Shown here piece by piece: positions 3,501 to 56,992 of a stretch of 64,000 bases of DNA. This DNA comes from Takakia lepidozioides. Taxonomy: Eukaryota > Plantae > Bryophyta. The DNA lies in NCBI GenBank assembly GCA_030704615.1, contig CM060734.1, forward strand, positions 58,032,001 through 58,096,000, in the 5' to 3' direction. Made by a program: the position numbers and the translations under genes. Within the stretch, counting starts at the first letter, position 1. Each line of letters starts with the position of its first letter. The notes below the pieces were generated by a model, which had not been told where the DNA came from, did not search any database, and was given only the letters and a program-made list of their open reading frames with translations.

Positions 3501-5115
3501 GTAATGTCGAAGTACCTTGGTCTATTGTGGTTTTGATCGGAGTCGCATAAAGTGCAAATGTCGCGTTTTTCTTCGTAGCTCTCATGAAGGTTCTAGCTCC
3601 AAGAAACAAGGGTTGAATACCTTTGGTACTTTTGTATTTTTGTCTTGCCGAAATTTTCGTGATCGCCAGTCGAAGTCAGGATTATGAAGTACAAATCAGG
3701 GAAGTCCAAGGATCATAGGATTCGTTGGAGACTGGATGACATTGAAAACAATCTGTGATGCTTGATTTTTAAGCTTCACTTCAAGGGGTTGAGTTTCATG
3801 GTCAATATAACCTAATGCTAACGGTCGTCCATCGATGACTTCAATAGGGGCAGAGAATTTCTTTCTTACGAGCGTTAAATTGTGTTGCTTCGCAAAGTCT
3901 TTGTTAATAAAACATGCTGAAGCGCTCGAGTCCAAAAGTGCTTCTACGGAGATATCTTGATTTTGCATCCTGATCTTTATTGGAACTGTGAAACAAGGTA
4001 CATGGTCTGGAGGTAGAAAAAGACCTTTTTTTTTTTAGGAGTTTGGGGTGTCCAGCCGCATGATCCTTACTATGACTTGACATCTTCGATTTTCAACCTC
4101 CTCGTATCGAACACTTGAGTTGTGCCCCGAGCTTTGAATCTTCTCTTGTTGGGACAGTTTAATGCTATGTGATCATCTTCTCCACAATAAAAGCATAATC
4201 CATTTGAGCGCCGTCTTTGTTTTTCTTGTGGCGTCAATGGTTTGAATCGAACAGCATCAATCTGCATAGGATCATTACCGGATGTCTCTTGGATCGTTGT
4301 GTTTGGTGCCGTAATAGCAGCGACATGGTGCATCATCGATCATCCAGATCGCTTTTCTTGACATCTTTCGAACAAACGATTATCGCATGCAATGACTTGG
4401 GTGATGAATCCGCTCAGTGTACTCACGTTTGGCATTGTCAGCAAGAAATCTTTTACATCCTCTTAAGGCTACATCGAAACTGACTAATGAGACTCTTCTC
4501 ATTCCAGTCGAGGTCGCACGCAAGTTGTCGAAATTTGGCAGTATAAACGGAAGCTGGACGTGCTCCTTGTTGAAGATTTTGCATTTTTGTCTTTGCAACT
4601 CTCTCTCTATCACTCTCTCCAAATGTTGCAGTGAACTCGGACATGAACGCTTCAAAATTGTATAGTAAATGCGAATTTTTCTCTAATAGCGGTGCAAACC
4701 AAGATAGGGCAGTGCCGGATAGAAGGGTGCCCACAAATCTCACTTGAATACCTTCATCAGAGTAGCGTTGTGGATGTAGTCGTATGAACAATCGTACTTG
4801 TTGAAAACAAAACCGCGAAATCTTGATCTCGTCCCATCAAATTTTTTGGGCATGCTAATCTTTGGTTCATTTGTAATCTGTTGAAGATTTGGAGGAACCG
4901 TTGCAGTATGATTTGTTGTAGTAGGGACTCGTAAGGTTGAAGATCCATTGTTCGACTCTTTCAACTCTGAAATTTGTTGTTGCAAATTGTCGAGAGTGTT
5001 GCCGAAGATCTTGAGACTGACCAGCTTGTAGTTGGGTAGTAGAGACACGAAGTTCTTGCATTTGGAGCTGAAGACTCTGCAATATGACGACCATTTCCAC
5101 AAATGTGTCTTCCAT
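573..5115 (-). pseudogene. gag-pol of the Tcn1-like element, with many stops and frameshifts
   Basis: Broken over ORFs 4867-5115, 4740-5102, 4453-4791, 4070-4336, 3696-3968, 3400-3609, 1790-2086, 1076-1789 and 663-1001, in Gypsy order PR-RT-RH-IN-CHD. Confidence 0.93.
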
Positions 5116-5136
5116 CTTAATTAACTAAGGAACAAA

Positions 5137-5153
5137 CTTCAGTCTCGCCAAAC
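5137..5153 (-). promoter_or_regulatory. Self-priming-type primer binding site
   Basis: cttcagtctcgccaa (5137-5151) is the exact reverse complement of ttggcgagactgaag (5429-5443) inside the LTR. Confidence 0.8.
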
Positions 5154-5762
5154 TGTCAAAGACGAGAACATGACTGAACACAAACAAGAGATCAGACTAG
5201 AGGTACAAGACTAGGCAAGAAGTCAAGGTCGGCGTGGCCGTATGCACAATAAGTAAATAGGAATCAAGGCGATCTTTATAACAACTTGGGTACAAGATAT
5301 TGGAACACAACTTGAATACTAGAATGCTGGAAACTGGACTGGTGTACCAGATACTGGAAACTGGGCTAGGGTACTGGGAACTGGACTGGAGTACTGGGAC
5401 TTAGAAACAAGAGTAGCTTAAACTGGTGTTGGCGAGACTGAAGAGTGTCCAGTCTCGCCTCTTATATATACTGGCTACTAAGAAGCTTCCCTAAGAAGCT
5501 TCCCTAAGAAGCTTCCCTATGGAGGTTTCTAGCTATAGAAGTTTCCAAAACTAAACAAAGGTTTCTTGATGGAGAAGCTTCCTGAGCAGTTTCCCAAGTT
5601 ACTCTTGGTAATTTGGTAAACTCCCGGTAACTTGGTAAGTAATGGTAAATCATGGTAGATCATGGTAAATCATGGTAAGTCATGGTAACTTCCGGTAACA
5701 TGATAACTTGGTAACTTATGATATTTACTCATGGTAAGTTCATCTGGGCTATGTCCGTGACA
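5154..5762 (-). repeat. 5' LTR of Tcn1-like element 1
   Basis: TGTCA...TGACA termini; homologous to 6583-7607; TATA-like cttatatata at 5461-5470; internal tandem motifs (aagaagcttccct x3, catggtaa-type repeats). Confidence 0.9.
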
Positions 5763-7607: not shown

Positions 7608-8347
7608 CACTAGAAGAAAAACGTGGAATAACCACTCTATTAACCACTCATTATGAGTGGTAAAAGACACTAAACCACTCTGGCCCCAGAGTGATGAAGA
7701 ACCAGTGGATTATGACAAGTGAGTGGTAAAAGACATTACGTGGCACTAGTGGTTAAGGACAGTGGTTCGAACCACTCACGTCCGGGTCCACCTGTTAATT
7801 GACGTGTCACAGTGGTAAATTAACCACTGTGACATATCAATGACGTGTCACAGAGGTAAACTAACCACTTATTATGTGTCACAATGGTAAACTGACGTGT
7901 CATAGTGGTAAAGTAATGACTTCCGTTTTGCAGTGGACACGTGGAAGCCGGAGGTCCGTGGCTGATATTGGAGATTATGTCGACACATGGCGACACTCTC
8001 AGCATGGACACGTGTCATGTGTCAGTGCTACAAAATGGATGGAGTGAAAAATTCAATGACTTCCGAAACCACTCATTGAATGATCACGAAATGACTCATA
8101 TAGTCATTCTATGAAAACTAAGAATATACAATATCATTCACATCGTGGTTATGTGAGTGGATGACGTCTCTCAGCAGGTCATTGGAATGATTACCCACAA
8201 AGTGGTATGTAAGCTGTTTGAGTCATCCATGGTGTCTCTCTGAGTGGGAACTATGGATTGGAGTGATTACTAATAGAGTGGTGTGTAAGTGATTATGAAT
8301 ACCACTGGAGGAATCCATACCACTAATTTAGTAATATATATGTGATT

Positions 8348-8694
8348 TGTCAAGTTAAATAAGCACAGTGTGAAAACAGCTAGAATAAAACTAGTTATTT
8401 GTATTTAACACTTGGATTTAGGTCAAGTGTTAAATCAGGTGTCAAGTTTAGTTTGACACCTGGTCTGTCTTATCTTCACGAGAGCGGCAGTCGCGCAGCT
8501 CATCTCTCTCGAGTTGAGCCTGCGCGACCGAGCTCCTTCATGCGTTTAGATCTGAGTGTGCTTATGATGGGAGTGTAGGTTGTTGTGGGGTGGAGTCCCC
8601 ATAGCTTGGGGTGCCCCTGGCTCAACTTCTATTTCTAAGAGTGATGGTTTGGTTTTCATGCTTTGCATCGTGTGTGTCTTTAGCTTGCTTATCA
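8348..8694 (+). repeat. Repeat A1 (5' partial LTR, 347 bp)
   Basis: Matches 19176-19522 with 2 mismatches by eye; contains three stem-loops (8403-8435, 8436-8462, 8490-8528). Confidence 0.95.
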
Positions 8695-8708
8695 CTCGAG
8701 AGAGATGA
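8694..8708 (+). promoter_or_regulatory. Self-priming-type PBS of the MTase-Gypsy
   Basis: actcgagagagatga is the exact reverse complement of tcatctctctcgagt (8500-8514) in repeat A; no TGG-type tRNA PBS here. Confidence 0.8.
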
Positions 8709-10231
8709 CCTCTTATCTGTGAGTGCAAGGTAGGAGTTAAGGGTTAGCACTTGTATGATTACCTGTGTGTAAGTAGTGCTTAGTTTGAGAAGCTTTAAAA
8801 AAAAAAACAAAAAAAATATGCAGGTTTCGATCAGCGTTGGTTCTGGCATGAGGCCGCCGGGCATGATGGAGCTACACTGCATGGAAGCAGCCTTCGTTTT
8901 GGTCGGTGAGGAGACATCGTGAGGCAGTACGCAGGCTGGTGGAGTGCATGGGTGAAGGATGCCAGAGCTGCGTAGTGGAGTGCGCCAACCCCGCTCTCCA
9001 CCACAGGTGCCAGCAGTAGCTGCTGCATACCCTGAGGCCGCTCCCACCAGATGAGCCACTCCCCGGTGGCGCACAGTTGGTGCAACAGAGGAGGTTGCTC
9101 CAGTGCGAGATCATGTCAGAACGCGCGCTGCGAAGAGGCAGTGGTTGTTGTGACTAGGGTTGGGAGTTGAGGTAAGGGTACTGGGAGTGGGCGTGCCGCA
9201 AAGCAGACTCGGAATACAAAGGCTGTTGCTCAACCCAGGGCAGCCCCTGCACCAAAGCAGAGGGACTTAGGGAGGGCCAAGCAGGTTTCGTCCAAATCTC
9301 ACTCCTCGGAGCAGCGGCGGTCTCAAGATCATTGTATTGCTGAAGACGACGTTGAAGCAGACTTAGATCTAGAGGAGAATAGAGCAGAGGAGTAGCAGGG
9401 GAGAAGTGTGATGCAGGCTTTCAACGCTGTCGGTGCCCATCAGCTTGCGAATTGCTGCTTCGGCCTCTGCTTGTGGAAGCAGTGCTGGTGTGAATGGGGG
9501 CTGCTAAGTGCTTTTACTGCAGGAATCTGAAGCATTTCATGCCTATGGTGAGGCCTTACGAAGATTTTGCAGCCTGATTCCAGGCCTAATTGCCATGTGC
9601 ATTGGCGGCTATGTCTTCACACTGGAAATGTGGCTGGAATTGAATGAATCCAGGGTGTTTTGATGCTTCTGGACCTGCACATTGAGGGCTGTGCACCCTG
9701 GCATCTGAAATTTAGGCCTGATTACCAGGCTTTTCATGCGCAAGTGCGGCTGGTTTCCCTTACCTTTGGACTGGATCCCCAGATGTAAGGGGGCTGGTGA
9801 TGAAGCCATTCCAGCTCCTCCTGATGCTGAGTCGACTGATGAAGAAGAGGCTGTGGGCAGCCCTGCTCCTTCCACTTGCTTCCTAGTTCTCTGCAGCTCC
9901 ATTCGGTGGTTCCAATCTCCCACACCGAACCAAGGGCTAGCGAAATAGAGGCAGCGACTGGGAAGGGCTGAGCAGAACCAGGAGCTGGTAGGAGCTGACG
10001 GGCATCTCTGCTGCATGGTTTTGGAGATTGACGAGCATGCAAGCTGCTCATGTGCAACCCTTTGATCAGAAAGGGGAAATCTACCTACCTAGACCTGGTT
10101 TCTGTTTTTGGGACTCTGCTAAAAATCTATGGAATTTTTAGAGTGTGAGTGTGCCATAAAATATCCACAATCCTGTTTCTAGAACCTGTGCTGGCCTATA
10201 TGAGAGACAAACCTGTGGATGTACTCCCTGT

Positions 10232-10966
10232 ATGGCTGGGGGAAATGAGGACGTAATTGAAGGGCATGTCTCTTCTCTTAGCCTGTGCACACAAGGGGAC
10301 AGGATCTATGTTTCCCAAGGAACTCAGACTGATTTGAGTGGAGAACAGTTGGACGAGTTGATTGCATACTGGGAGTCAGGCATTAGCAGTAGACAACAGA
10401 CTGCTGTAGTTGGCATTGAGGGCCTCAATATCGCCTTGGACAGTCAGAACTCTGTTGGAGCCAGCAGTTCTGCAGCTGTAGGTGAAATACCAAAGTGGGT
10501 GAAAGCTAGGCTTGGAACACAGCCAAAGACAGCTCCGGGGACCAAGGTGTTCAGCCACAAGGCCGTGGTGTACTGGAGCAGAGGAGCAGGAGCTGCACAA
10601 GTTTGTGCAATTAGACAGTGTTGCAGACGGACACGCTCTGCACAAGGCAACCACGAACGGGGGTTCATTAGCGAGGACAAGTTTGTTCTGTTTGAAGGCG
10701 ATGCAGTCATCCGCAATGAAGACACCCGCAACCGTCTCAAAGCTTTTGAGTTGAGAGACTATCAGACCCTACCTTTGTTTTCTTTAGTGTTCAGTGAGCG
10801 GGAGATAGGGGAGTACTGCTTTGTCTCTACCTGGCAGAAAGAGGAGGAGGGTTGGTTAGAGCGAGCTACTGTAGCTTGGGACAAGGTTAGTGGCAGGTTT
10901 CTGGACATAGATATACCTCCTACACCTTACCATCAAGCAGAGCGAGGCACTTTGAGAGAAGTCTAG
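10232..10966 (+). CDS. Extra 244-aa ORF of unknown function upstream of gag, inside the retrotransposon
   Basis: ATG-initiated intact ORF between the PBS and gag; no domain recognised. Confidence 0.5.
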   Translation: MAGGNEDVIEGHVSSLSLCTQGDRIYVSQGTQTDLSGEQLDELIAYWESGISSRQQTAVVGIEGLNIALDSQNSVGASSSAAVGEIPKWVKARLGTQPKTAPGTKVFSHKAVVYWSRGAGAAQVCAIRQCCRRTRSAQGNHERGFISEDKFVLFEGDAVIRNEDTRNRLKAFELRDYQTLPLFSLVFSEREIGEYCFVSTWQKEEEGWLERATVAWDKVSGRFLDIDIPPTPYHQAERGTLREV

Positions 10967-11500
10967 AAGTTGATAGCATAGATCAGGATTAGATCTTGCT
11001 TGGGCGGGCTTCTATTCTTCCCCTCCATCTCTGTACTATTTTCATTACCTTGTACTTGTAGTTGCCAAAGCCTCTCTTGGTGGAGGCCAGTCAGTCCGGG
11101 GTTTTGGGCTGGGATATTCTGCAGGATCAACATTGCAGCTGGATTTTGGTGTGGGGGTGTTGATGTTTTGATTTCTTGTGTTTGGATCCCCCCCAACACC
11201 TGCATGCTTGACTGTGCGCCATGTTGGTTTTGTGTGGGCGCTTGCTTTCATAGGGATTAGGCCGGATTTGATCACCGCTCAATCCTAGAGTATGCTGTCG
11301 GTGTTGAGGCTGGAGTGATGACCAGCAAGACCACCAGTGTTTCTTCTATGGTGAGGCTGGGTTGATGACCAGCCAACCATAGGAGTTCTTGCGGTGGATG
11401 CAGGTGCAGGTGCCCTGAGCCATTGGGATATGACCCTTAGACTGCAACAGGTGCCCACCCGTGTCACTATTAGATTAGTACTAGAGCCTTATAGTGTCAC

Positions 11501-12966
11501 GTGGAGGAGGTGCACATTGTGAGTGTCATTACGGAGTTACCCAAGGGTTTTGAGGGGAGTACGGCTACAAGCAGTGACAGTGAGAGTGGGTTCACAAGAC
11601 GAGGTATTCGGTTCAGACCACCTTCACCGCCACCCTCAACTACTGTAGCGTCAGACACAGACTCGGAGGCTTCATCAACAGGTGTGCACTTTCATTCGCC
11701 ATTGTTGTGGGACGACATGGAGGAGATGTATGGAGCTACCAAGGGGCCTCGTAGGTACTCTGGAGCTGTGGGCACAATCGAGTTGGATGACTTTATCCAG
11801 GAGTTCGACAGCTGGTGTGATTTGCAGCAGATGCGCAATCCACAGCTATTCACCCCATTCATGGCGTGGAAGGGACTGTTCCAGCATTTGGAAGGCCCGC
11901 CTATGGACATTACCACGAGTTCAGGCGAGGACATGAAGCAGAGATTGAGGAGTGGAGGATGTATTGGTCACCTGACTACGTCTCCATTACTCGAGGCACG
12001 ACGCGACCAGTAGCTGCATCAGTACCAATAGCTCCCACTGCCAGCACTAGTAGTGGAGCAAGTAGTGCTGGTACTTCTGAAGGTGGTACCAGTTCAAAAG
12101 GTGCTTCTCCTGCCACGACTACAACACATTTGCCAAGATTCAACCCGGTGGTGGAGTTCTTCCAGGAGTTGCGGAGGAACTACCAAGGTGTACGGACAGA
12201 GAAGCTGCGAAGTTTGCAAGACTTCCAGCGCAAACCCAGTGAGAGCCTGCGAGAGGCGTACACTCGTATGAGGCGCTTGATAAGTGTGACCCAAGGGGTT
12301 ACTGAAGCTCAGGCAATCCAGTTTTGGTATGGAATTCTGGACAAGGAGCTCAAGAGAAGGGTGCGAGATGCAACCCTGTTACAAGCAGCCCAACCCACAT
12401 TAGCAGATGTGTTTCTGCTGGCTGAGCGGATTGAGCTCAACATGGTGGAGGAGCGAGTTGTTACAATTGGATTTGGTAAGGACATGCCTGTACGGGGCAC
12501 AGCTGTCAGCCCACAAGCACAAGGGACTGCCCAACAGCGTGGTCAGGGGGGCAAGGTTGCCCAGCCCAAGTTCCATGGAGCTTACAGGGGACCTCAGGTG
12601 CAGAGGCCCGTGGCATCTTTTGCAGGCCAACAGCAACCAGGGGTGATATGTTGGACATGTGGAGGACCCCATGTCAAGAGAGATTGCCCAGAGAGTGGCA
12701 GAAGGCCGGCACAAGCACAGCCTGCACAGTTGCAGTGTGGGCATTGTGGCAAGTATGGGCATGGAGATGCCCAGTGTTATGACTTGCATCCTGAGTTGCG
12801 CCCAGGCCAGTTCCAAGGGAACAATGGTGGCCGGGGGCGAGGTGGACCAGCCCAAAGAGGACGAGGTGGTCGGGCACGAGGTGCAGGCCAAGGCAACCTC
12901 CACATGGCCAAGGACGCGGAGGTCAGGGTGTTGACCAAGGCATGGCCAATCGGCTTCAGCAGCTAG
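11501..12966 (+). pseudogene. gag with two zinc knuckles (frameshift ~11905)
   Basis: Gag-like core (QRKPSESLREAYTRM); knuckles CWTCGGPHVKRDC and CGHCGKYGHGDAQC; RGG-rich tail. Confidence 0.85.
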
Positions 12967-13051
12967 AGCAGAGGCTCGCTGCCATGGCTATAGCTCAGGC
13001 GTACCGGCTCCCAGGCGGGATGGCCCACCTCCTGCTCCTGAGGGAGGAGAT

Positions 13052-15693
13052 ATGGGCGGAATGGGATTCATGTGCGGAGCAGCACTACCATTAGAGCAGG
13101 TGGAGTCTGCTGCAGCCGTGACTCGAGGAGCAACACGAGTTCCTGAGCCACGAGGTGCAGAGGTGGAGTTGGATCCACAACGTGGGGAGGCAAGCCGTCA
13201 GGCAAGGCTGCCTCAGTCATTCACCTTGGCGGAGACAGTGTCAACGCCATCCATGGCACCTAGTTCTCGCCCGACTGTTAACGAGGCGGAGGTTACTATG
13301 CCATTGGGAAGAGCTACCCGTGCAGCACTGACACCTACTACCAAGGCTAGTGCAGCCGGTGTGTTATTGGGAGCAGCCACCTCTGTGTGTCAAGCCCCAC
13401 TGTTCTCGGCGACCATGATTGCGACGCCGGGAGTGAGACCAGCTGCAGTGTTCAGACTAGCAGCAACACTCTGCGAGAGTGGAGAGGTCACTTCATCTTC
13501 TGCGGAGTTAGTGGAAGGTGTAGTGGCAGAGGGATCCTCGGATTTGAGGGTCAAGACTGCCACGGCAGCGCCCTGGCAAGCTGCAGCTGCCAGATTGACG
13601 GAGCTGCCAGCTAGGCCAGCCTTTGAGCGCGCCATGGTGACACCTGGAGTTGTCTTGTTAGACAACCAGGGAGGCATTTTCACTTTGAGTGGACCGGCAG
13701 GCAAGAAGTACCGGCCACTGCGGGTCTTGTTGGACTCAGGAGCTCAGCCACTGATGTTGGGCAGAGCTGCTATTGCAGGTTTGGGCCTCATGGAGGCGGA
13801 TATGGAGCCTTGTCCTTTCCAGATACAGACATCTCTGGGAGGATCAGAGCAGGCTCGCGGCATGACACGGCATCAGTTGGCTATTAGACTGCAGCCGGAT
13901 CATCCTGTAGATGGCTCAGTGATGCGAGCCAAGGCCATTGTGACAGACGCGGTCTCTTACGATGTCCTCGTTGGTGGGGCAGTGTTATACCCCATGGGCT
14001 TCACCCTGGATTTCTGGGAGGAGTCAGCATCCTACAGGCCTGGATGGCAGTCAGGGGATGGTCGCCGTGCACAGCTCCCTGTGACATTCATTGGGGGTAT
14101 TGCAGCTGCTCAGCGGGGCAAGATGCCAACACTAGCCGCCTTCACAGCTGCAGTCAGCTGGCCTGGAGAGTTGCTGGAAGGCAATGCCCATGCAGAGGAT
14201 GTGCCACCTCCAGCAGAGCAGGATGACATGCATGGTACGGCGGAGTTGCCTGCCATGGTTGCTCACACTCCGTTGTGGGGTACGAGCAAGGATTTGCAGC
14301 ACGCTGCTGATGGACGGGTGCAACAAGCTTGGGTAGAAGCTTTTGTACCGTCAGGAGAGGAGGAGAGTGCGGTGATTGTACCAGGGCCACCTCAGTTGTC
14401 GCCATTGGACACCACACCTCTTGTGTGGCAGCGACCGGATGAAGGCATATGCCTTCTGGACTTATTTGGCGGGATCAGCACTGGATTGGCTGCAGTGCTG
14501 CAGGCAGGTGTACGAGTTCGACGTTACCTGTATGTGGAGAGGGATGAGACTGCACGACGCGTCTCACTGCGCCATGTTGCTCAGATGGTGCAGCAGCACC
14601 CTGAGTTGTTGCCGGTGTCTGCAGTTCGTGGATATCAGCAGGCCTTGCCAGCAGACATTTCGTTGCTGGGGGCGCAGGATTTGGAGCGGGTTGGCTCCAT
14701 TGATCTGGTAGTGGCAGGTTGGCCCTGCCAAGGGCATTCATCAGCCGGGCATGGCAATGGATTGCGAGACTCGAGGACGGGTCTGTTTTGGGAGATGGTG
14801 CGGATTTTGCGCCACTTGCAGCTTCATCAGGCTGTATCTCCGGCATACATCTTGGAGAATGTGCCACTGATGGGTGATTCTCGGGCCAGGGTGATGGCCA
14901 GTGTGCATCAAGTCCGGTCGTGGCTTGGGTCAGCAGTATTGCTGGATGCAGCTGCAGTGGGGTCACGGGCTCATCGTCCACGACTATGGTGGACTAACTT
15001 GATGCCACCCGCACTGCTCAAGCGTGCATTTGATGGGGTGCAGCGGCCAGCACACCTCACCGTGGATGGCATTTTGGACACAGGAAGGCAGTCTCAACGT
15101 GTGAGACACGATGACCGTTCGCCTTTGGCAGTGGTCAACAGAGTGGGTCAACCACGAGCAGCATTACCTACACTGCTCAGCTTCCCAGGATCCCATGCTT
15201 TTCGGGATGGTGGACCTGGCCTCCTGTGGGATGCTCAGTTGCAGCAGTTAGTGGAGCCTAATGCCGACGAGCGAGAGCGGGCTATGGGGTTTTCCACTGG
15301 GACCACGGCGGTGCCTTCCTTTCTGAGGCATCACGTCGTCAGGTGTTGGGGCAAGCAATGGATCTCAATTGCTTGACCTGGATTGTCAGCTTGGCTATGG
15401 CTGAGCAACGTAGAGTGCGGAGTGCACTTCCCTTGATGGTCTCTCTGCCTACCGAGACGGTACAGGCAGCGAGTGGGGGCGAGCCGGTGAGGACCACGAG
15501 GTGTAGACATCCATGGCACATGTGGGAGGTGCTCGAGGTTCAGAGGGAGTTGGCAGCGAAGGCAGCTGTGATGGATGAGGTTGGGGATTCTTCTCGGGAT
15601 GAGGAGGTTCTCAATGATGAGATGATGGGGCAGGATGAGGCCTTGTCATTGACTGAGCAGGAAGGGGGTACTGCTCAAGAGGTTGCAGCATAG
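13052..15693 (+). CDS. Polyprotein segment: aspartic protease plus DNMT3-like C5 cytosine methyltransferase (MTase ~14441-15390; 1-nt frameshift ~15320)
   Basis: Protease VLLDSGA (DSG 13733-13741). MTase motif I LDLFGGI, II YVE, IV GWPCQG (PCQ 14723-14731), VI LENV (ENV 14855-14863), VIII AHRPRLWWTNL, IX ERERAMGF, X RRQVLGQAM in the next frame. Confidence 0.93.
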
Positions 15694-18600
15694 CAACCAC
15701 GGGACGCGTCCTCTACCTCTAAGCCCACTGGACTTAAGGTTGCAGTTACGGAGGACAATTGGGAGCCTGATATTGGACCCATTGTCACCGGAGGAGAGAG
15801 ACGACGTATACGGCGGTTCCTGAGGGCTTACAGGAATTGCTTTGCCTTCAGTTTGAAGGACTTGGGAGCACTGAAGGGTCAAGAGATCCGTATTGAGTTG
15901 GCCACTGACACGCCAATCTTTCGGAGACCCTATAGATACAGTGACATGGAGAGGTCTTTGATTCAGATGAGGACTCAAGATCTCTGGGAGGCAGGTTTGG
16001 TGGAGCTCTCTGGTGGAGAGTATGCTTCAGCCACAGTGATGCCAGCTAAGAAGGATGTCTATGGCAATTGGACGGAGAGACGTATGTGCGGTGATTACCG
16101 GCCTGTAAATCGTCAGACCAAGTCCGATAGGTATGCCATGCCAACACCAGAGGAGATCTTTGATGCCATTGGGCATTCCAAGGTCTTTAGCACGTTGGAT
16201 TTACGATCCGGATATCACCAGTTGCCGATCAAGGAGGCGGATAAGCAAAAGACGGCATTCTGGGGGATCAATGAGCACGGGAAGGATTGCCTATACCAGT
16301 GGCGGTTCTTACCATTTGGGCTTAAAAACGCTCCCGCTGAGTTTCAAAGAGTCATGGACAGGATTCTAGCAGGGGTGGAGTTTGCTCGGTGCTACATAGA
16401 TGACATCATCATCTTTAGTGCTACGGTGGAGGAGCATGAGAGACACCTTCAGGGGGTATTTGAGCGCTTGAGGACGCACGGATTGAAGTTACATCCGGGC
16501 AAGTGCAAGTTTTTCCACAACCAGATTGAGTATCTGGGTCACATGATATATCCTGGAGGATTGGGGGTACAGCAGACTAAGGTAGAGTCCATTGCACAGG
16601 TTCCACGCCCCACGGATGTGAGCCGAGTTCGAGCTTTCATGGGGTTAGCAAACTATTACAGACGGTTTGTTAAGGGATTTAGTGCCATTGCAAAGGCTCT
16701 AACCAAGCTGACCAAGGTGGACCAGGAGTGGCAGTGGGAAGATGAGCAAGAACAAGCTTTTCAAGAGCTCAAGGCGAGGTTGACCTCGGCGCCCATCTTG
16801 AGACGACCTATCAGGGGGCGTCCTTTTCAGCTGCATACAGATTGGAGCATGCTGGGGCTTGGAGCGGTGCTCACACAGGTGGATGATGAGGGAAGAGAGT
16901 TCGTAGTGGCTTATGCTAGCCGCTCGAACAATGCTGCAGAGTCTAAGTATAGCTCATATGAGGGAGAATGCTTAGCTGCAGTGTGGGCCGTGGCACACTT
17001 CAGGTGCTATTTATACGGCAATCTCTTCACCCTTGTCACGGATCACCAACCACTCAAGTGGTTGATGGAGTCAGACAAGCTTACGGGGAAGCTTGCACGG
17101 TGGGCACTCATCCTTCAAGAGTATGACTTTCAGGTGGTGCATCGACCGGGTTTGGTCAATCGAAATGCAGATGGGTTGAGTCGCAATCCATGCACGAGCC
17201 AACAGGATGACACTGGAGCTCGGTGGCATGGTGAGACGGACGAGGAGATGGTGCCCGGATGGCATGCATCTGCATTTCTGTGTATCTTGGCAGCGGAAGG
17301 CCAGGTTGGACCTACAACAGGGATGACTGTAGATCAAGTGTCTGAGGACCCTGAGGCCAGCAATGAGCAGGGTGGCGCCAAAGATATACATGAGGATTCA
17401 GTTGTGTTGGACTACCTCCGCAGTGGAGACACGGCAGCCACTATGACTGCCAAGGAGAGGGATCGGATCCTACAACGAGCCAAGAGGTTCAGGTGGGAGG
17501 GGACACACCTGCTCCGAGTGTGGGAGGATGGTCGAGTGAGGATTGTGCCTCACCCAACACAGCGGGCACGGTTAGTGCGGCATGCCCATGAGGAGTTGGG
17601 GCATTTTGGGGTGCGACGCACTCATAGTCTACTGCAGGGGCAGTATTGGTGGCGTGGTATGCACACAGAGGTACAACACTTTGTGGCTAGGTGCATGGTG
17701 TGTGACAGGGTGCGTGCTTCATTCAACGCCCCTACTCCACAATTGCACCCTCTTCCGATCATGGGATTGGGCTACAGGTGGAGTCTTGACTTCGCAGGGC
17801 CGTTGCCACTGACCATGCGCCACAACAAGTACGTGTTGGTGATGGTGGAGCACTTCTCCAAGTGGATTGAATTGGTTCCATTGCCTGATAAGGCTAGTGA
17901 GGGAGCTGCGTATGCATTCCTGGATTGTGTGCTTAGCCGATTCGGTGCTCCAGCTGAGGTACTCACGGACCAAGGGAGAGAGTTCTTGGGGGAGTTTCAG
18001 GCTTTGTGTGACAAGGCCTTGATAGACCACCGCACCACTTCTCGGGATCATCCTGAAGCCGATGGCTTGGCAGAGAGAGTTGTTCAGACAGTAAAGAGAG
18101 GTTTGCGCAAGTATGGCTTGCAGAAGGGACACCTAGGAGATTGGGACCTTCAGTTACCCTGGTTAGCCATGGGCTACAGGTTCAGCAAGCAAGCATCACT
18201 TGCCTCCTTCTCACCATACTTTCTTCTCTTTGGCCGAGAGCCGGATTTGCCTACATCCATTCGCAGAGAAGCTGCTACAGTTCTTAACCTTGACGATCCG
18301 GACGTGTGGGCACGTGCATGTGAGCAGCGTGCAGAGTTGTTCAAGAGAGTCATGCCTATGGCTTTCGAGAACCTTGCCATTGCACAACACCGTGATACGT
18401 TGAGGTATGCTACCATACGTGGTGGGGGCTATCGTCCTGGGGTTCGGAGATTCAACCCTGGTGACTATGTCTATCTGCAGCAGACTGCTCCTACGACCCT
18501 GGATGTGACTGCAGGACGTGTTATTTTGAGGGTTCGAGAGGTCTTGCCCTCAGGCGTCTTGGTCTTGGAGGGTCGGGATGGCATCACTTGGAAGGACCAT

Positions 18601-18828
18601 GTGCGTAATTGTGCGCCATGTCACCTTCCGAATGTCGATGGCAGGATTGACCCAAACCTGGCAGTGGTATCTGCAGGTTTGAGGTGCATGTTGTGTGGGT
18701 CTGCTAAAGGGGCAGCCACCATGCTGGTATGTGATCGGTGCTCTAGAGGTTGGCATATGGGATGCTTGACTCCACCTCTTGAGATGGTTCCGGATGGGGA
18801 TTGGTTCTGTCCACATTGCATTGGATAG
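15694..18828 (+). CDS. Pol: reverse transcriptase, RNase H, DDE integrase, C-terminal PHD finger
   Basis: RT (LDLRSGYHQ, LPFGLKNAP, YIDD); RNase H (LHTDWS, EGECLA, TDH); integrase HHCC and SLDF/LTDQG/AER; PHD C4HC3 CMLC...CDRC...HMGC...WFCPHC at 18685-18819; uninterrupted frame. Confidence 0.96.
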   Translation, partial: QPRDASSTSKPTGLKVAVTEDNWEPDIGPIVTGGERRRIRRFLRAYRNCFAFSLKDLGALKGQEIRIELATDTPIFRRPYRYSDMERSLIQMRTQDLWEAGLVELSGGEYASATVMPAKKDVYGNWTERRMCGDYRPVNRQTKSDRYAMPTPEEIFDAIGHSKVFSTLDLRSGYHQLPIKEADKQKTAFWGINEHGKDCLYQWRFLPFGLKNAPAEFQRVMDRILAGVEFARCYIDDIIIFSATVEEHERHLQGVFERLRTHGLKLHPGKCKFFHNQIEYLGHMIYPGGLGVQQTKVESIAQVPRPTDVSRVRAFMGLANYYRRFVKGFSAIAKALTKLTKVDQEWQWEDEQEQAFQELKARLTSAPILRRPIRGRPFQLHTDWSMLGLGAVLTQVDDEGREFVVAYASRSNNAAESKYSSYEGECLAAVWAVAHFRCYLYGNLFTLVTDHQPLKWLMESDKLTGKLARWALILQEYDFQVVHRPGLVNRNADGLSRNPCTSQQDDTGARWHGETDEEMVPGWHASAFLCILAAEGQVGPTTGMTVDQVSEDPEASNEQGGAKDIHEDSVVLDYLRSGDTAATMTAKERDRILQRAKRFRWEGTHLLRVWEDGRVRIVPHPTQRARLVRHAHEELGHFGVRRTHSLLQGQYWWRGMHTEVQHFVARCMVCDRVRASFNAPTPQLHPLPIMGLGYRWSLDFAGPLPLTMRHNKYVLVMVEHFSKWIELVPLPDKASEGAAYAFLDCVLSRFGAPAEVLTDQGREFLGEFQALCDKALIDHRTTSRDHPEADGLAERVVQTVKRGLRKYGLQKGHLGDWDLQLPWLAMGYRFSKQASLASFSPYFLLFGREPDLPTSIRREAATVLNLDDPDVWARACEQRAELFKRVMPMAFENLAIAQHRDTLRYATIRGGGYRPGVRRFNPGDYVYLQQTAPTTLDVTAGRVILRVREVLPSGVLVLEGRDGITWKDHVRNCAPCHLPNVDGRIDPNLAVVSAGLRCMLCGSAKGAATMLVCDRCSRGWHMGCLTPPLEMVPDGDWFCPHCIG

Positions 18829-19077
18829 TGGGAGTGGATACAACCATGGGAGGCTAACAAGAAACGCAAGGCCCAGCTACTAGGAGACCTTGAACACACG
18901 AGATCTTGGCTCAAGTTCATAGATTGCAAGACGGCGACTAACGATGGGGCTACTCTTGTACCCGGCCTCTTGGTTGATAGAGTTTGAGCACGATAAAGAC
19001 AGTGATAGAGGACTTAGTACGGCTGTGGCTATTACATCTTGTAGCTATCTGGAGGTAGATGGACCTATCCACCAGCT

Positions 19078-19087
19078 AGGGGGGCGA
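19078..19087 (+). promoter_or_regulatory. Polypurine tract
   Basis: aggggggcga immediately before repeat B1. Confidence 0.7.
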
Positions 19088-19608
19088 TTGTGCTAGACTA
19101 CTTTATTGTGCATATATGTGTGGTGTGGTCTGGACAGCGATGTAGTTGTGTAGCGATATGTATGCGCACGACAGCTGTCAAGTTAAATAAGCACAGTGTG
19201 AAAACAGCTAGAATAAAACTAGTTATTTGTATTTAACACTTGGATTTAGGTCAAGTGTTAAATCAGGTGTCAAGTTTAGTTTGACACCTGGTCTGTCTTA
19301 TCTTCACGAGAGCGGCAGTCGCGCAGCTCATCTCTCTCGAGTTGAGCTTGCGCGACCGAGCTCCTTCATGCGTTTAGATCTGAGTGTGCTTATGATGGGA
19401 GTGTAGGTTGTTGTGGGGTGGAGTCCCCATAGCTTGGGGTGCCCCTGGCTCGACTTCTATTTCTAAGAGTGATGGTTTGGTTTTCATGCTTTGCATCGTG
19501 TGTGTCTTTAGCTTGCTTATCATTGTGCTAGACTACTTTATTGTGCATATATGTGTGGTGTGGTCTGGACAGCGATGTAGTTGTGTAGCGATATGTATGC
19601 GCACGACA
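19088..19608 (+). repeat. 3' repeat block B1-GC-A2-B2 (complete LTR = B-GC-A, followed by a second B)
   Basis: B1 19088-19173 is identical to B2 19523-19608 (86 bp); A2 19176-19522; junction palindrome GACAGCTGTC at 19170-19179. Confidence 0.95.
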
Positions 19609-19856
19609 GATTACTTATACCACTATATGAATAGTAATGTGGGCAATTGTGTGCATTTGGCTACTACCACAATTTTAAATTATACCACTATTACAATGAT
19701 GTGCAAGTAATTAGGAACATGACTAGAGAAACACATACCACTAGTGTAGTAAAAGAACTACCATTGGGGATTCAAGCTCCACAAAATATAATAGAATCCC
19801 AGAGAGTAAGTGCTGGAACACTGTCAACAAAATCCAGCCATGATAAAAGTCTGAGC

Positions 19857-21913: not shown

Positions 21914-24005
21914 TTTTGCCTCGATTGTCCCACCATTGACTGGGGTCAGAAAAGTATTCATTCCACAACTTCTCCTCGTCTCAGCTGTTACCTGTTTCTG
22001 GATACTTCCCTGTTGTCACATTGGCAGTACCATGTCAAAGTCGCTCCAAACTATCAAAGGCTCACTCAACCAGCTAACTTGCAAAATTCAACATGAACAT
22101 TTAGGGCCGATTCTGATAAGAGGGAAAAACAGGGTGAAATGTGTTGAAGAAGGTGCCTTCATTACCAGTGCCTGAGTTTATAATTGTGTCGCTGCTGCTG
22201 CGGCTTCTAGTTGACCATCTACCCATGTAGGTTTCTTGTAGCTATTGATCCATCTGGTATATTTCCAGCTTTGGTGATGCAACCATGCACCTCCGATGCC
22301 ATTTTCTAGGGCTGTCAAGCTTGCACACGCACTGTAAACGCACACAAACATGATGTAGTCGAACTTCACCCCTTCCCCCATCATTTGCTTTCAGGTTTCC
22401 AAAGCCCCATACAGCGCTCCTGCTCTGCACACCCTGCAAGCATCACATTCCACAACACCACATCTCATTCAGCCATAGTGTTGAACACTCCCTTGGCATC
22501 CTCAATGCTACCATATTTGGCATACATGGCCACTAGAGCAGTGTTCAGGATGACATCTGGAACAATTGCAGATTTGATCATGTCACCAGGGATCTCTTTG
22601 CCCTTTTCCAGGGCTGCCAGACACACTGCAAACACACACAAACCTTATGTTGGCGGGCTTCACCCTTTCCCCCATCATTTGCTCATAGGTTGGAGCCTCC
22701 ATCCCGCACCCCTACTGTGCATACCCCGCAAGCATCGCACTCCACGACACCACATCTCGTTCAGCCATAGTGTTGAACACTCCCTTGGCATCCTCAATGC
22801 ACCCACATTTGGCATACATGGCCACCAGGGCAAGAGCAATGTTCAGAGCGACATCTGGTAATCTGACAAACATTCTCCTTTTAGAATTGTTCCAGCAAAT
22901 GCCCCAACCCTACTGACTTAGAGGCTGTAGTACCCAAAGCCATGTCCGTTTCCAGAAAATTGTCTGATGAAAAAGAAGTTAGGCATAAAACTTCCCTGGA
23001 CTTATTTCCAGTCTGTGACATGGGGGAGGATATCATGGATGACCTCAAGGGTCTACCCACTCTCGGCACCACACTGGAATTTAAACTAATGGCAGGAATC
23101 CTACCTTTGAATAGCAAATAGAAGCAGAGAGGAAAAGGAGAGTGCAATTGCACCCAACTCAACTTATCACACTAGTTCCTATGGTCGATTGCATCTGCTA
23201 CACTCTGTAATCTGACAGGCATTCACCTTTTAGCCTCGGTTGTCCCAACAGTTACTGGGGTCAGAAAAGTATTCATCCCATAGCTTCTTCTCATATCTGT
23301 TACCTATTTTTGGATACTTAGGGACGACTCTGATAGCAGGGAAATTCAGGGTAAAATATGTTGAAGAAGGTACCTTCATTAGCAGTGGGCCTTGTTCTAT
23401 CAATTGCGCTGCTGCCATTACTGTTTCCAGTTGACCATCTACCCACTCGTAGCCGTTGTGCTATTGAAGAAGGTGCCCCCCCTTCCCCCATCATTTGCTC
23501 ATAGCTCTCCAAAGCCTCCATCCCACGTCCCTGCCGTGCATACCATGCAAGCATCGCACTCCACGACACCACATCTCGTTCAGCCATAGTGTCAAACACT
23601 CCCTTTGCATCCTAGATGCACCCACATTTTGCAAACATGTTCACCAGGGTTTTGTTCAGAATGACATCTGGTATAATTCCAACTCTGAAGATGTCGCCAT
23701 GGACCTCTTTCCCCTAAGCTGCCAGGGCAATTTCAGCTTTGATGATATCCCCATGTACCTCTCGCCCTTCTCCAGGCCGGCTGCCAGGCTTGCACAAGCA
23801 CTGCAAATGCACACAAACATGATGTGCTTCCCCCATCATTTGTTCATAGCTCTCCAAAGCCTCCATCCCACGTCCCTGCCGTGCATACCCTGCAAGCATC
23901 GCACTCCACGACACCACATCTCGTTCAGCCATAGTGTCGAACACTCCTTTGCATCCTAGATGCACCCACATTTTGCAAACATGTTCACCAGGGTATCATT
24001 CAGAA
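21914..24005 (-). pseudogene. Degenerate PLS-class PPR gene fragments interleaved with two OSB/PDF-like WWDNR motifs
   Basis: Repeated ...LVNMFAKCG...VFDTMAERDVVSWSAML.GYA.QG.G.EAL..YEQM..EG...CACASL.ALE.GKEVH; LWNEYFSDPSQWWDNRGK (~21914-21977) and LWDEYFSDPSNCWDNRG (~23230-23290). Confidence 0.85.
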
Positions 24006-28039: not shown

Positions 28040-29602
28040 TCCAGGGTATGCACAGCAGGGACGTGGGATGGAGGCTTTGGAGACCTATGAGCAAATGATG
28101 GGGGAAGCACATCGTGTTTGTGTGCATTTGCAATGCTTGTGCAAGCCTGGCAGCCCTGGAGAAGGGCAAGAGGTGCATGGGGATATCATCAAAGCTGGAA
28201 TTGTGCCAAATGTCAATCTGAACACTGCCCTGACAACTTTGGAAAAGGGGAAAGAGGTCCATGGCGTCATCTTCAAAGCTCGAATTGTATCAGATGTCAT
28301 TCTGAACAATACCCTGGTGAACATGTTTGCAAAATGTGGGTGTGTCTAGGATGCAAAGGGAGTGTTCGACACTATGGCTGAACGAGATGTGGTGTCGTGG
28401 AGTGCGATGCTTGCAAGATATGCACGACAGGGACGTGGGATGGAGGCTTTGGAGACCTATGAGCAAAGGATGGGGGAAGCACATCATGTTTGTGTGCATT
28501 TGCAATTCTTGTGCAAGCTTGGCAGCCCTGGAGAAGGGCAAGAGGATATCATCAAAGCTGGAATTGTGCCAAATGTCAATCTGAACACTGCCCTAGCAGC
28601 TTTGGAAATGGGGAAAGAGGTGCATGACGACATCTTCAGAGCTGGAATTGTACCAGATGACATTCTGAACAATACCCTGGTGGACATGTTTGCAAAATAT
28701 TGGTGCATCTAGGATGCAAAGGGAGTGTTCGACACTATGGCTGAACGACATGTGGTGTCGTGGAGTGCAATATGATGTGCTTGCAGGGTATGCACAACAG
28801 GGATGTGGAATGGAGGCTTTGGAGAGCTATGAGCAAATGATGGGGGAAGCACATCATGTTTGTGTGCATTTGCAATGCTTGTGCAAGCCTGGCAGCTGGC
28901 CTGGAGAAGGGCAAAGAGGTGCATGGGGATATCATCAAAGCTGGAATTGTACCAAATGTGAATCTGAACACTGCCTTGGCAGCTTTGGAAAAGGGGAAAG
29001 AGGTCCATGGCGACATCTTCAGAGCTGGAATTGTACCAAATGTCATTCTGAACCATACCCTGGTGGACATGTATGCGAAATGTGGGTGCATTGAGCCTGG
29101 ACGAGGGCAAAGCGATGCATGGGGTATCATCAAAGTTGGAATTGTACCAAATGTCATTATGAACACTGCCGTGGCAGCTCTGGAAAAAAGGGAAAGAGGT
29201 CCATGGCGACATCTTTAGAGCTCGAATTGTACCAAATGTCATTCTGAACCATACCCTGGTGGACATGTTTGCAAAATGTGGGTGCAAAGGGAGTGTTCGA
29301 CACTATGGCTGAACGAGATGTGGTATCGTGGAGTGCGATGCTTGCAAGGTATGCGCGGCAGGGACGTGGGATGGAGGCTTTGGAGACCTATGAGCAAAGG
29401 ATGGGGGAAGCACATCATGTTTGTGTGCATTTGCAATTCTTGTGCAAGCCTGGCAGCCCTGGAGAAGGGCAAGAGGTGCATGGGGATATCATCAAAGCTG
29501 GAATTGTGCCAAATGTCAATCTGAACACTGCCCTAGCAGCTTTGGAAAAGGGGAAAGAGGTCCATGGCGACATCTTCAGAGTTGGAATTGTACCAGATGT
29601 CA
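28040..29602 (+). pseudogene. Tandem array of degenerate PLS-type PPR units
   Basis: About 4-5 similar ~300-400-bp units with shared frameshifts; same unit as 23480-24005 on the opposite strand. Confidence 0.88.
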
Positions 29603-32600: not shown

Positions 32601-34169
32601 CACGATTCCAAGCATCATGTAGGTATTATTTACTATATAATTATGAACTACTTAACACCAAGAAACTGCTTCTGTATTTATAGAACACGATTAAAGTCAA
32701 TATAAGCGGTGGACACGGTAAAAAATAGTAACACGCCGTTTCCATTTTTGCATTTAAAAATTAAAACAAAGAATAAACGGAAAAGAAAAACACATAAACC
32801 CAGATGAAATGAAAACTCCGCGGCGGCGATTGCCGCGTAGCAGTTCTGTCGACCGTACCATATTTGATTTCAAATTGACCAAAACAATTCTGAAAATCAC
32901 AAAATTCAGAAAATGAGGGCTCGCAGGGAGGGCGTGGAGGCGTCCGCCAGAGGTGGGGCGGGTCGTGGCAGGCGGCCATTGGTCCAGATGCGTGCGCAGG
33001 ACGAGTTTCTGGTCGGCGATTGGCGGAGGCGGCGGCAAGGGGGGTAGAGGGCGCATGCAGAGCAGGGGGGGTACACATCAGCTCTGCTCTTATCCAGACT
33101 CTCTCTCCTCTCTCTCTCTCTCTCCTTGTGGGCTTTGTCTTGTTGTATGCATCTCTGTCTGTCTCTCTGGGTCTCTAGACCCGCTTCGCTTCGCTGCTTG
33201 CATGCTTGCCTTGCTGCTCTAGCTCTTGCTCTTGCTCGCTCCTAGCGGATCAACCACGGGGTGGAGGTGGAGGGGGGAGGCAGCCATACCTTGTTCGGCG
33301 GAGGAGCTTCTTCGGCGGCTTCGCTCTTGCTGCGGCGTCTGGGAGAGCGATTTGAGGGCTGTGTTGTCTCAAGCAGGAGTGTGTTTGTGTCCACCATTCC
33401 ATCTTTTCGCTGCTGTCTGTGGCTCTCGACTGGGAGTTTTCGTCTTTTCGAGCCTTTCTTTCACGGGAGTTTGAAGTTAGGTGTGGTTACAGTTTTTGGT
33501 GCTCTTGATCGGGGCCCTCGCTTGCTGCCTCTTCCTCTGTCTGTTGGTTGGGGTGGTTGTGCCGTTCCTGTGCATAGCGGGGTGATCCTGAGGCTACTCG
33601 GCGTTCTGGTTGTGCGTTACAAGCAGAGGTGTGTAAATTTGGTGGACGTGAAGCAAGCTTAATCTTTCTGTTATCTCGCTTTTTCTCGCTGCTGTCGTCC
33701 CCCTTCCGACAGAGGAGGGCGTGATAGTTGGGGCGAGGCCCGTTTGTTTTCGGGGTGCTTTCTGATCTAGATAGCATCGGTAATTCAGCGAGTTCTGCGT
33801 GGGCACACCGGTGGCTTTGCTTCTGTAGGTTTGGGGGCGTTATTACTCCCACCAGTTGTTCCTAATACTTTCTTTGAAACCAAGACTTGCCAATCTATCT
33901 CGGGCGCTTACATTTTCTCGAGCGAGCGAGTGAGCGAGCGAGAGAAGCCCCCTCCGCCTCCTGGCTGACAGACAGTTGTGTTCTTTATTCCGAGCAGTTG
34001 TCAGATTGTGTTACAAACAGTTCCCGTATCTGCATGGCACCAGTTCCTTCAGGCGAACACTCTGTAGTCCATTTGATGTGGAGAGAGCGGTCGTAACAAT
34101 GACAGTAGCCCCTGCGAGCCATGTGAGCTGAGTATTGAGCAAGTTAGAGTGCAGTAAAATCAAGGCACA

Positions 34170-54300: not shown

Positions 54301-54628
54301 CCTAGAAACGGTGCCATCCGCCCATCCAGAACCCCGCTGATCACCCGACCCCAACCATCCTCAGGAACAGGATTCTTCCTAGCCCACCAGGCTCAGGCAA
54401 TCCTTCCACATCAGCTCCAGGCCAGGAGGTCAGACTCCCCCATGCTCGCGTCACACCATCTACAGACCAGGAGGCCGGGAACCCCCATATGCAAGATACA
54501 GCCCGCACATCAGCAAGTACAAGCTCGTCAGGGGGAAATCGCTCCAACCATGGACAATACACCCCTGGACGAACATGCCTTTCTGTTGAAAGAAGATTGG
54601 GAAGAACAAGAGGCGGGATCTTATCTCC

Positions 54629-56992
54629 ATGAATGTACCTCAGATGCGTAAGAGAGTGGTATCTCTGGAAGAAAGAGGCATCCTAGCCCACTTTCCAGGG
54701 AGAAAAGTTGGCCGAGCATATGTCCGAGAATGGGCGACTCGCCACTTTGGGGGAGCAGAGGAGCTAAAGCAGCACTTCTGCCACTACAAGGGTAGGGGTT
54801 TTTTCTCAATTGCATTTGAAAACCAGGCAGCTGCAGCACAAGCCCTCAATTTTAATCCTCACCTATATGGGTTCAATGTCAATATCTTCCCTTGGTCACC
54901 CAACATGGGCAACCGGAATGGCAAATTGTGGGGACCAAGAATTGTATCAGTCCCATTCATTCCAAATCAATATCTACCCAACCTCCCTGATATAGCCAAC
55001 CACTTTGGATTTTATCTGGGCTGCATCTCAGTATTCGACCTCTTCATGTGTATGGACAATATCAGGAACGATCTGGCTTGGAGAGCCACCACCATTGCCT
55101 CAAGAGTGAATAACTCGGGTAGTGCAAAATTTGTTTTAATGATGCCCAATGAGGCTGTCCTTCCGCCCTATATCAGGCTACCAATTGACGAGGAAGGTAA
55201 CTACTTCACCATCAGGCTTATTGAGGATACATCATCACAAGCGTGCTTCAACTGTGGAAAGCTGGGCCACATCAAAGCACAATGCAAAGCACAGAAAAGG
55301 AGAAGATCCGGTGTCAAAAACCATCTTACAACCCCCCAATCGGCCAACAGGTATGATGCAAACACACCACCAAGGCAGTCTGCAAGCTTTGTAAGGAGGG
55401 AACAGACAAAGGGCCTTTCCCCAACTGATCTGCTGCAGATGCATGGGCTTGCCGAGGAGAAAGCAACAAAGCACCAGCCCCTTACCCAGAGTAAACAAAA
55501 AGCTAAGACAACATGATGACCCTATGCGAGCGGAAGCATCACCAAAAAAGGCTTCTTGGAACTCCAAAGGGAAATGGATCCCAATGCAGAATGCACTGCC
55601 TTCTCCAACTCCACCTTTGGCGGACACAAGTATTCTCCCCAACGTGCCTCCGCCAAAAACCACAATCCTCACTGGGATTGCTAGCCACTCCGCAATTGCA
55701 AAAAATTTCAGAGGTATCAAATCCTTCCCACACCTCGCTCTTAATTGCTCCTCTACAATCAACACCGATGACATCCCCAAGGCCTCATGCATAACCCCGT
55801 TAGTGTTCAGGAAAGGACCCCCACAGTCCCTTCTTGTCACAGAATCGGCATGGGAGGATTTTGCTTCCTTGTGGATTACTGTTCAGGAAGTTCAAAACTT
55901 CATTGCCAATTGTCCACCCAGCACATGTCAAGAAAATATGCTCAGAAAGAAAATTCAGGACTTCTTGCTGGCTTTCCTACCTCACTATCACATGGCAGGG
56001 ACCACAAAAATATTTTGGGACTCCTTTCTGGAAAACTTCCCTGGGCTCAATTGCAATCCAACAGTGCATGTCCTCGCTTTGTTAGAGGAAGCTGACATTT
56101 ACATCACCCCGCCACCCGCGGGGGCAATCTGGGTCAAGAAAAGCATCCTGGCAGAGCCAAGAGGAGCCACTAGACTCAAACCCAGATTCAGGGACACACT
56201 CGCAAATGCATTCTCCATCCTTGAGGCCATCATGGAAGCGGATATTGATGAAGAAAACCACAGAGGAGACCTGCAGAGAACAAGAGACCACTTGTATGGT
56301 GTACAAGTGCAGTCCACATCCTCCTCATCGAGTGTTTCGGGAAGTTCGGACTGCCCAAAGGAGGCCGCATAGGATCAGGAGCTATTTGCCAACGCAATTC
56401 AGGGACTCACTAGTCAGCCCCAGCTTTCTTCAGACACTTCTCCACAGGAAGGATCAACCCAGGGACAACACGCACCTCTATCTGGCCCATCTTCGGAGGA
56501 GCAATGCAACACACTGGGCCAGGTTTTTCTTCCTCCCGCTCCCTGTTTTATCTTCTACCTAGACAGACTCAATTCCAAAAGATTTGGTTGCTTTGTTGCA
56601 AGGGAGTTAAACAGGCTTGCAGGAAAATCCCGACAATTTCTTTGCCTCAAACGCTAGCTTTACCTTATACACATGTCTCTAGTCCTAAATTTCCCAAACC
56701 ACCACTTCTGTTACATCCGCCCACAAAATTCCTACAAAAAGCAGGCAATCTTATTTCTATCTCAGCTCTCCAGCCACACCAAGGCCAATTTACTGCCACA
56801 ATCCCGCCAAACCTTATTCACACTGTCGTCATGGTGATGATCAAAAAACAAACCCCCAAGCCTCCCACAGGTTTTCAATGGGTAAACACCCTGCTCCCCA
56901 TAGACAAAAGGGTCAAATTCTATTTTGATCACCCTGGGCCATCAAATGTGAGTAATACTCTAGCCCTAGAAGTCCCTCTTCATATTGATTAG
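54629..56992 (+). pseudogene. LINE (L1-like) ORF1 region, frameshifted
   Basis: DUF4283-like segment (KGRGFFSIAFEN...AL...PH...NIFPWSP) and CCHC knuckle CFNCGKLGHIKAQC; continues in ORFs 55443-56372 and 56504-56992. Confidence 0.75.

Follow-up and report, generated by a model that had tools for sequence, protein, structure and literature searches.

Circular forms of the reverse-transcribed DNA of LTR elements are treated in textbooks as dead ends or, at best, as a reserve substrate when HIV is blocked by drugs, and an early circle-junction model for retroviral integration was proposed and later dropped. According to the accessible text of two reports (PMC1905944, PMC4372172), HIV integrase acts in vitro on the palindrome where the circle ends meet, cutting each strand 3' of CA, foamy-virus integrase also cuts palindromic circle junctions, and two-LTR circles are able to integrate in cells; this route is a back-up that uses a freshly ligated end-to-end joint and yields a colinear provirus. 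The insertion sequences IS3, IS30, IS21 and IS256 insert from minicircle junctions, in which inverted ends are abutted across a short spacer. In the available part of that source (PMC3299598), both 3' ends are cut, a target duplication is generated, and the transposase builds the junction afresh in every cycle, taking the spacer (1-2 bp in IS2) from host DNA. Split direct repeats in the order A1-internal-B1-A2-B2 are described for Ngaro, PAT-like and VIPER elements, which use a tyrosine recombinase (PMC6681497, available portion). Among elements with Gypsy domains, KnitGypsy-Dnmt3 of Klebsormidium nitens has DIRS-like repeats in the order A-coding-B-A-B (de Mendoza et al. 2018, PMC5890265). 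This layout is noted in one 2018 figure legend, and its mechanism is apparently undescribed; the accessible text of the description mentions no target duplication, palindrome, primer site or integration mechanism. The literature searched, which included few subscription journals, theses or Repbase entries, yielded no description of an LTR retrotransposon with an internal att palindrome.

The element studied here lies in a 64-kb window, which is the whole stretch of DNA that was analysed. It is a Gypsy element spanning 8348-19608 (11.3 kb), in which a 347-bp repeat A and an 86-bp repeat B are arranged in the order A-internal-B-A-B. The features are listed below with their strands and the basis of each assignment.

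8344-8347, no strand: left copy of the target-site duplication, GATT (sequence).
8348-8694, plus strand: repeat A1 at the left end, beginning with the att right arm TGTC (345/347 identical to A2).
8500-8514, plus strand: predicted RNA 5' end, complementary to the primer-binding site (14-nt exact complement; fold; like arrangement in relatives).
8695-8708, plus strand: primer-binding site adjoining A1, complementary to 8500-8513 (sequence; relatives).
10160-10966, plus strand: 268-aa open frame upstream of gag, without a Pfam match (open frames, Pfam).
11495-12966, plus strand: gag region, split over several frames (Retrotrans_gag E 0.0018, weak and under the Pfam cut-off).
12935-15376, plus strand: frame with a C5 cytosine methyltransferase domain (PF00145 E 8.8e-13) and a DSG motif that we take to be aspartic-protease-like (protease without a Pfam match).
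15694-18828, plus strand: RT, RNase H, integrase (HHCC and D,D(35)E) and PHD finger (Pfam).
19078-19086, plus strand: polypurine tract adjoining B1 (sequence; G-run at the equivalent place in relatives).
19088-19173, plus strand: repeat B1, ending in GACA (86/86 identical to B2).
19167-19182, no strand: proposed internal att site CACGACA-GC-TGTCAAG, holding the 10-bp palindrome and its 2-bp spacer (sequence, conservation).
19176-19522, plus strand: repeat A2 (repeat comparison).
19520-19526, plus strand: A2/B2 joint, the putative ligation point of two reverse-transcribed cDNA ends (variable length among sibling copies in relatives).
19523-19608, plus strand: repeat B2 at the right end, ending with the att left arm GACA (repeat comparison).
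19609-19612, no strand: right copy of the target-site duplication, GATT (sequence).

The sequence GACAGCTGTC at 19170-19179 is a perfect 10-bp palindrome composed of the end of B1 (GACA), the dinucleotide GC (19174-19175) and the start of A2 (TGTC). The element begins with TGTC at 8348 and finishes with GACA at 19605-19608, and the GC spacer is found at neither inserted end; the initial annotation, which had described a palindrome made of the right end, a spacer and the left end with GC absent from the termini, was thus correct on this point. Palindrome symmetry alone means little, because 65 perfect 10-mer palindromes were seen in the 64-kb window against about 62 expected at 1/1024. A bare 10-bp palindrome is not above chance; its position as the B1/A2 seam and its conservation exceed chance. 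Two short inverted repeats are also present within A (8404-8414/8424-8434 and 8436-8445/8453-8462, covering 8404-8462, and again at 19232-19290), and TGTCAAGTT (8440-8448), in the second of them, repeats the 9 bases found at the element's left end.

RT, RT_RNaseH, Integrase_H2C2 and rve were matched by Pfam in Gypsy order, and the integrase catalytic residues are conserved among the aligned proteins (D699 in 31/31, D759 in 31/31 and E794 in 30/31). A search of 34 frames of at least 90 aa gave no match to a tyrosine recombinase. The Gypsy domain order, the D,D(35)E integrase, the TG...CA termini and the 4-bp target duplication are all those of Ty3/Gypsy elements, and two complete terminal LTRs bounded by a primer site and a purine tract are missing; the element is Gypsy by enzymes and insertion chemistry and falls outside the two-terminal-LTR definition. 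A PHD finger is also carried by Chlamydomonas Gypsy-7a_cRei, and the repeat layout is absent from the available part of its description. The 268-aa frame upstream of gag (10160-10966) is well covered by host contigs and likely belongs to the family. The repeats are 99-100% identical, as in a young insertion, yet the coding region within 8348-19608 holds several frameshifts and stops; the window copy either is non-autonomous or contains assembly errors.

In Tf1 of fission yeast, the primer site pairs with the element's own predicted RNA 5' end, not with a tRNA. The present element appears to prime itself in a Tf1-like manner, as judged from the complement of the primer site within A, which reaches 10-12 of 12 nt in 10/14 copies with an A1 end, a level attained by at most 1/50 control 12-mers per copy, and is weak (9/12) in 4/14 copies. 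A TATA-like motif is located about 30 nt upstream of the complement in several relatives, and the RNA-fold z-score is inflated, as the fold start was chosen by the already known complement. Tf1 likewise has a self-complementary primer site but, to our knowledge, integrates with ordinary LTR ends. Because the primer site adjoins A and the purine tract adjoins B, the reverse-transcribed LTR would be B-GC-A, in which B would correspond to proximal U3 and A to distal U3, R and U5. As the LTR is set in this way by the two sites, the inserted ends would fall inside it, and the inserted copy reads as (B-GC-A)-internal-(B-GC-A) that has been circularly permuted, with the break lying at the GC of the LTR that comes first. 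The ends TGTGCT/TTATCA, which had earlier been taken as the true LTR ends, are inexact; B begins at 19087/19088 (ATTG or TTGT), 1-2 bases before the TG at 19089. The primer-defined ends were also considered as att and rejected, as they do not form a matched inverted pair in any family; some families retain CA or TG near the A2/B2 joint, perhaps as vestiges.

The A2/B2 joint differs between siblings. In a first family (n = 7), 5/7 joints are plain, one contains an extra purine-tract base, and one contains a 17-nt filler, which resembles part of A, together with two purine-tract bases. In a second family (n = 7), 3/7 joints are plain, and the remaining 4/7 deviate by -2, -2, -1 and +1 nt. Because siblings differ and joints carry primer remnants, the joint is not inherited via RNA. 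The seam is fixed while the joint varies, suggesting that the seam is inherited and that the joint is likely remade by end-joining. The consulted part of the HIV report (PMC1905944) gives about 52-58% as the share of precise joints among two-LTR circles.

Relatives were collected as 86 loci from three scans, most of which represent two families from one plant metagenome set and are not independent lineages. B-A-B after pol was found in 24/86 loci, corresponding to 17 distinct insertions; the seam was present and B2 was not found in 7 loci (L004, L005, L026, L033, L045, L081 and L083), of which L081 is a collapsed circular assembly, L045 is rearranged, and the others are unexplained or too short. 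Single-B endings occurred in 19 loci (18 mapped, being 14 distinct, plus L007); A-internal-B accounts for 15/33 distinct clear 3' ends. A further 36/86 loci, L086 among them, were left out because they were too short or truncated or because the part downstream of pol was disrupted. In L045, inverted same-family pieces follow A2 in place of B2 (4846-5305), as in a rearranged or nested copy. Among viral contigs, the scans gave one distant locus (L080), which is without the repeat layout. L081-L086 are plant or algal retrotransposons within bacterial genome bins, likely as eukaryotic contamination.

The consensus of the seam in relatives, the integrases of which are 51-82% identical to that of the window, is CAYGACA-GC-TGTCAYG. 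All 18 clear B-A-B ends, including that of the window, have a 2-nt spacer (GC 9, AC 5, AT 2, GT 1, TC 1), which is GC or its decay product in 17/18. C>T or G>A changes make up 23/24 deviations from the 10-mer at 24 junctions picked by a motif pattern that permitted only such changes in the arms, which leaves the spacer counts as the unbiased part. These changes are as expected for decay of methylated CHG/CG sites after insertion. A second B-A-B element in L069, missed by the pattern, has an AC spacer, a changed left arm and a more decayed seam. The 16-bp core shows 85% pairwise identity, against 33% and 27% for the 30-nt flanks, among 8 lineage representatives that were selected by the seam motif itself. 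The seam is best preserved in distant members, by comparison of L026, L083, L033 and L086 (58%, 54%, 51% and 49% integrase identity to the window's, respectively): the perfect 16-bp palindrome CGTGACA-GC-TGTCACG occurs in L026 and L083, both arms are changed in step in L033 (compensatory GGCA-GC-TGCC), and the contig of L086 stops inside the seam (CACGACA-GC-TG). The initial annotation had suggested, as checks, the conservation of CA-NN-TG and the inverted flanking bases across related families and a search for sub-elements ending at the site; both speak in its favour, the sub-elements being the A-internal-B copies. An ACGA motif 10-13 nt upstream of the seam (67-96% per column at the 24 junctions) and, in one family (L027, L032, L064 and kin), tandem 15-nt units with CACGACA before the seam are possible sub-terminal integrase binding sites.

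Both ends were available for 11 elements including the window, comprising six complete A-internal-B-A-B (window, L001, L017, L036, L056 and L060) and five complete A-internal-B (L002, L024, L035, L073 and L011). Exact 4-bp target duplications, each of a different sequence, flank 10/11 of them. The exception is the A-internal-B copy L011, which has no 4-bp duplication and shows a decayed 8-bp one (5/8) at 4141-4148 and 13214-13221; its target is a contiguous host repeat, and the copy is possibly an aberrant insertion. Each of the 32 distinct right ends, which were located through their homology to B, finishes in CA, and none continues with GC. The 13 distinct clear left ends all start at TGTCA, one of them decayed to TATCA, and B precedes none of the 13. 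The mirror product A-B-A-internal-B, which would also be expected from a two-LTR circle with its two identical sites, was likewise found at 0/13 distinct left ends, as against 6 complete A-internal-B-A-B, and an outcome of 0 versus 6 has a chance of 1 in 64 if both circle sites are equal. The initial annotation also proposed re-cleavage of the integrated element at the intact seam, which is unsupported because a second chromosomal cut would leave unmatched flanks, and none was seen: of the five complete A-internal-B copies, four are flanked by matching 4-bp duplications and one lies in a contiguous target. Re-cleavage of integrated copies was accordingly rejected as the source of A-internal-B. 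This class fits one-LTR circles and can alternatively come from B1-B2 recombination.

Taken from these inserted copies, from which all the enzymatic steps below are deduced, the palindrome is the conserved seam of the LTR halves, matches both inserted ends and probably serves as a ready-made att site, which integrase would nick after CA on both strands on circular cDNA. RNA would begin near 8500 in A1, finish at the equivalent place in A2 and be self-primed at 8695-8708, and plus-strand priming at the purine tract would give a linear cDNA with the LTR B-GC-A at both ends. Host end-joining, as the variable joints suggest, would then link the two cDNA ends into a two-LTR circle, and one-LTR circles would be formed too. 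Nicking after CA on each strand by the DDE integrase would produce two CA-3'OH ends with 2-nt 5' overhangs, a geometry shared with processed retroviral ends, which the initial annotation proposed and which follows from the sequence of the site. The CA-3'OH ends would be inserted 4 bp apart, and repair would discard 2 nt (GC) and yield the 4-bp duplication. A two-LTR circle opened at the 5'-LTR site would give A-internal-B-A-B, and a one-LTR circle would give A-internal-B; both inserted products were observed directly, with 4-bp duplications except in L011. Of the two, only A-internal-B-A-B, with two copies of A, could make a new full RNA. Given the absence of the mirror product, the circle model would need an extra assumption, namely that the 5'-LTR site is always opened; our guess is that this site becomes double-stranded first in reverse transcription and captures the integrase. 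The earlier proposal that the site behaves as a joined pair of att ends is well supported by the conserved seam, the mapped ends and the sub-elements. On a wider scale, we lean towards the view that an old Gypsy clade, with members in land plants, liverworts included, and as far away as chlorophyte-like algae, moved att from the cDNA ends to one fixed LTR palindrome and integrates obligately from end-joined circles.

The same att site could serve without an obligatory circle if integrase opened the seam in the 5' LTR while the cDNA was still linear, kept the short B piece and the long piece together in one complex and inserted both, after which the host would join the free ends in the chromosome. 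The products A-internal-B-A-B, the 4-bp duplication and a variable joint would all be the same. This order of events is unlikely: it requires a chromosome break at every insertion, yet the joints are mostly precise or 1-2 nt off, and it gives no A-internal-B (15/33 distinct clear 3' ends) unless all of these come from B1-B2 recombination. It is less probable still that the seam is a fixed remnant, never cut, and that an unusual reverse transcription through B2 gives linear cDNA already bounded by TGTCA/GACA plus 2 nt. Such cDNA would need no more than ordinary end processing, and the single permutation seen would be accounted for; on the other hand, no primer site adjoins the B end or the A start, the purine tract and primer site set the other permutation, the A2/B2 joint with its primer remnants is not RNA-inherited, and the internal spacer remains GC across distant lineages.

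Staggered DDE strand transfer, and not recombinase exchange, gives unrelated target duplications and spacer loss, and we know of no tyrosine-recombinase retrotransposon that makes a target duplication. Both points bear on the idea that a tyrosine recombinase, own or borrowed, integrates the circle at the seam as in Ngaro, PAT and VIPER elements. The repeat order equals that of these groups in the text available (PMC6681497), but the element has no recombinase match, its DDE catalytic residues are conserved, and the 10/11 unrelated 4-bp duplications together with the spacer loss fit staggered DDE strand transfer; this reading, already largely refuted, is very improbable. A chance palindrome or an assembly artefact has a negligible probability. 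The 65 perfect 10-mers in the window would speak for chance, but the seam and the layout are conserved in independent assemblies, where the repeats share no more than 86-95% identity, and host contigs leave the match at 19173 and enter other DNA.

Regarding the host's own runs, the element family is abundant, and the depth of assembled contigs drops at both element ends. None of the 16 variant places listed for 19060-19535 from host contigs falls within 19170-19179, and the contigs that leave at 19173 are two that match B to that point and then run on for 266 and 169 other bases. A second subfamily in the host contigs has the first 10 bases of A in common and diverges right after them (window 19185). 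Among proteins, the named close relatives are from liverworts (77-78% over part of the length), and more distant ones are from Klebsormidium, Closterium and Tetraselmis. In an RT-RH tree, which omits four loci and five proteins (outgroup or short ones) for lack of length and in which deep nodes are weakly supported, L033 is sister to the Klebsormidium protein P0059, and a Tetrabaena protein forms a group with L083 and L086 (support 0.998). Three Klebsormidium proteins fall among the seam-bearing loci, with a FastTree support of 0.93 for the clade that includes both them and the window, and none is labelled KnitGypsy-Dnmt3. The methyltransferase domain had no match in the scanned Klebsormidium proteins P0059, P0085 and P0086. 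P0061, P0069 and P0077, annotated in Marchantia polymorpha and Closterium, have the same methyltransferase and RT arrangement, and methyltransferase-bearing Gypsy elements are therefore not confined to Klebsormidium.

Compared with the described systems, the element resembles canonical Ty3/Gypsy elements and retroviruses in gag-PR-RT-RH-INT, the DDE chemistry, CA-3' ends, a short duplication, the purine tract and the loss of 2 nt per end; it differs in that the putative att site is a joined pair inside the LTR and that inserted copies are circularly permuted. KnitGypsy-Dnmt3 shares the Gypsy domains, a cytosine methyltransferase in the pol region and the DIRS-like repeats, as far as its accessible description goes (PMC5890265), and no compared sequence bears that label. 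As in the two-LTR circle route of HIV-1 and foamy virus, a DDE integrase would nick a palindromic junction and the opened circle would integrate. In contrast to the joint described in the consulted parts of those reports, the site here is fixed, with a 2-nt spacer, in U3 and apart from the ligated joint, and its use is apparently the normal route. The parallel to IS3/IS30-type circle junctions drawn in the initial annotation holds for the insertion step, in which abutted inverted ends across a short spacer would be cut at both 3' ends with a target duplication. It fails for the origin of the junction, which here is a fixed part of the LTR, inherited via RNA with its GC spacer, and the circle would be closed elsewhere, at the A2/B2 joint that is likely remade. 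Unlike Ngaro, PAT-like and VIPER elements as portrayed in the available text (PMC6681497), the split repeats are here combined with a DDE integrase and 4-bp duplications, implying that such a layout can arise without a tyrosine recombinase. If the proposed route is true, nature would offer an example of a retroelement whose regular life cycle includes DDE integration from circles, and retroviral integrases could be connected with the way in which IS3/IS30-type elements paste themselves in. Copies of this kind would likely be missed or mis-bounded by search tools that expect two flanking LTRs. The 16-bp site and its enzyme are directly testable, and relatives are annotated in the laboratory plant Marchantia polymorpha (P0061, P0069).

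Elsewhere in the window, related coding-like repeats form two arrays in opposite orientations, at 22300-24000 and 28040-29600, which presumably resemble plant PPR genes. Other transposon remains are probably present at 54590-58925, where frames contain a zinc knuckle and match DUF4216 weakly, and a long unbroken trehalose-6-phosphate synthase/phosphatase frame (Pfam) is located at 34158-36203.
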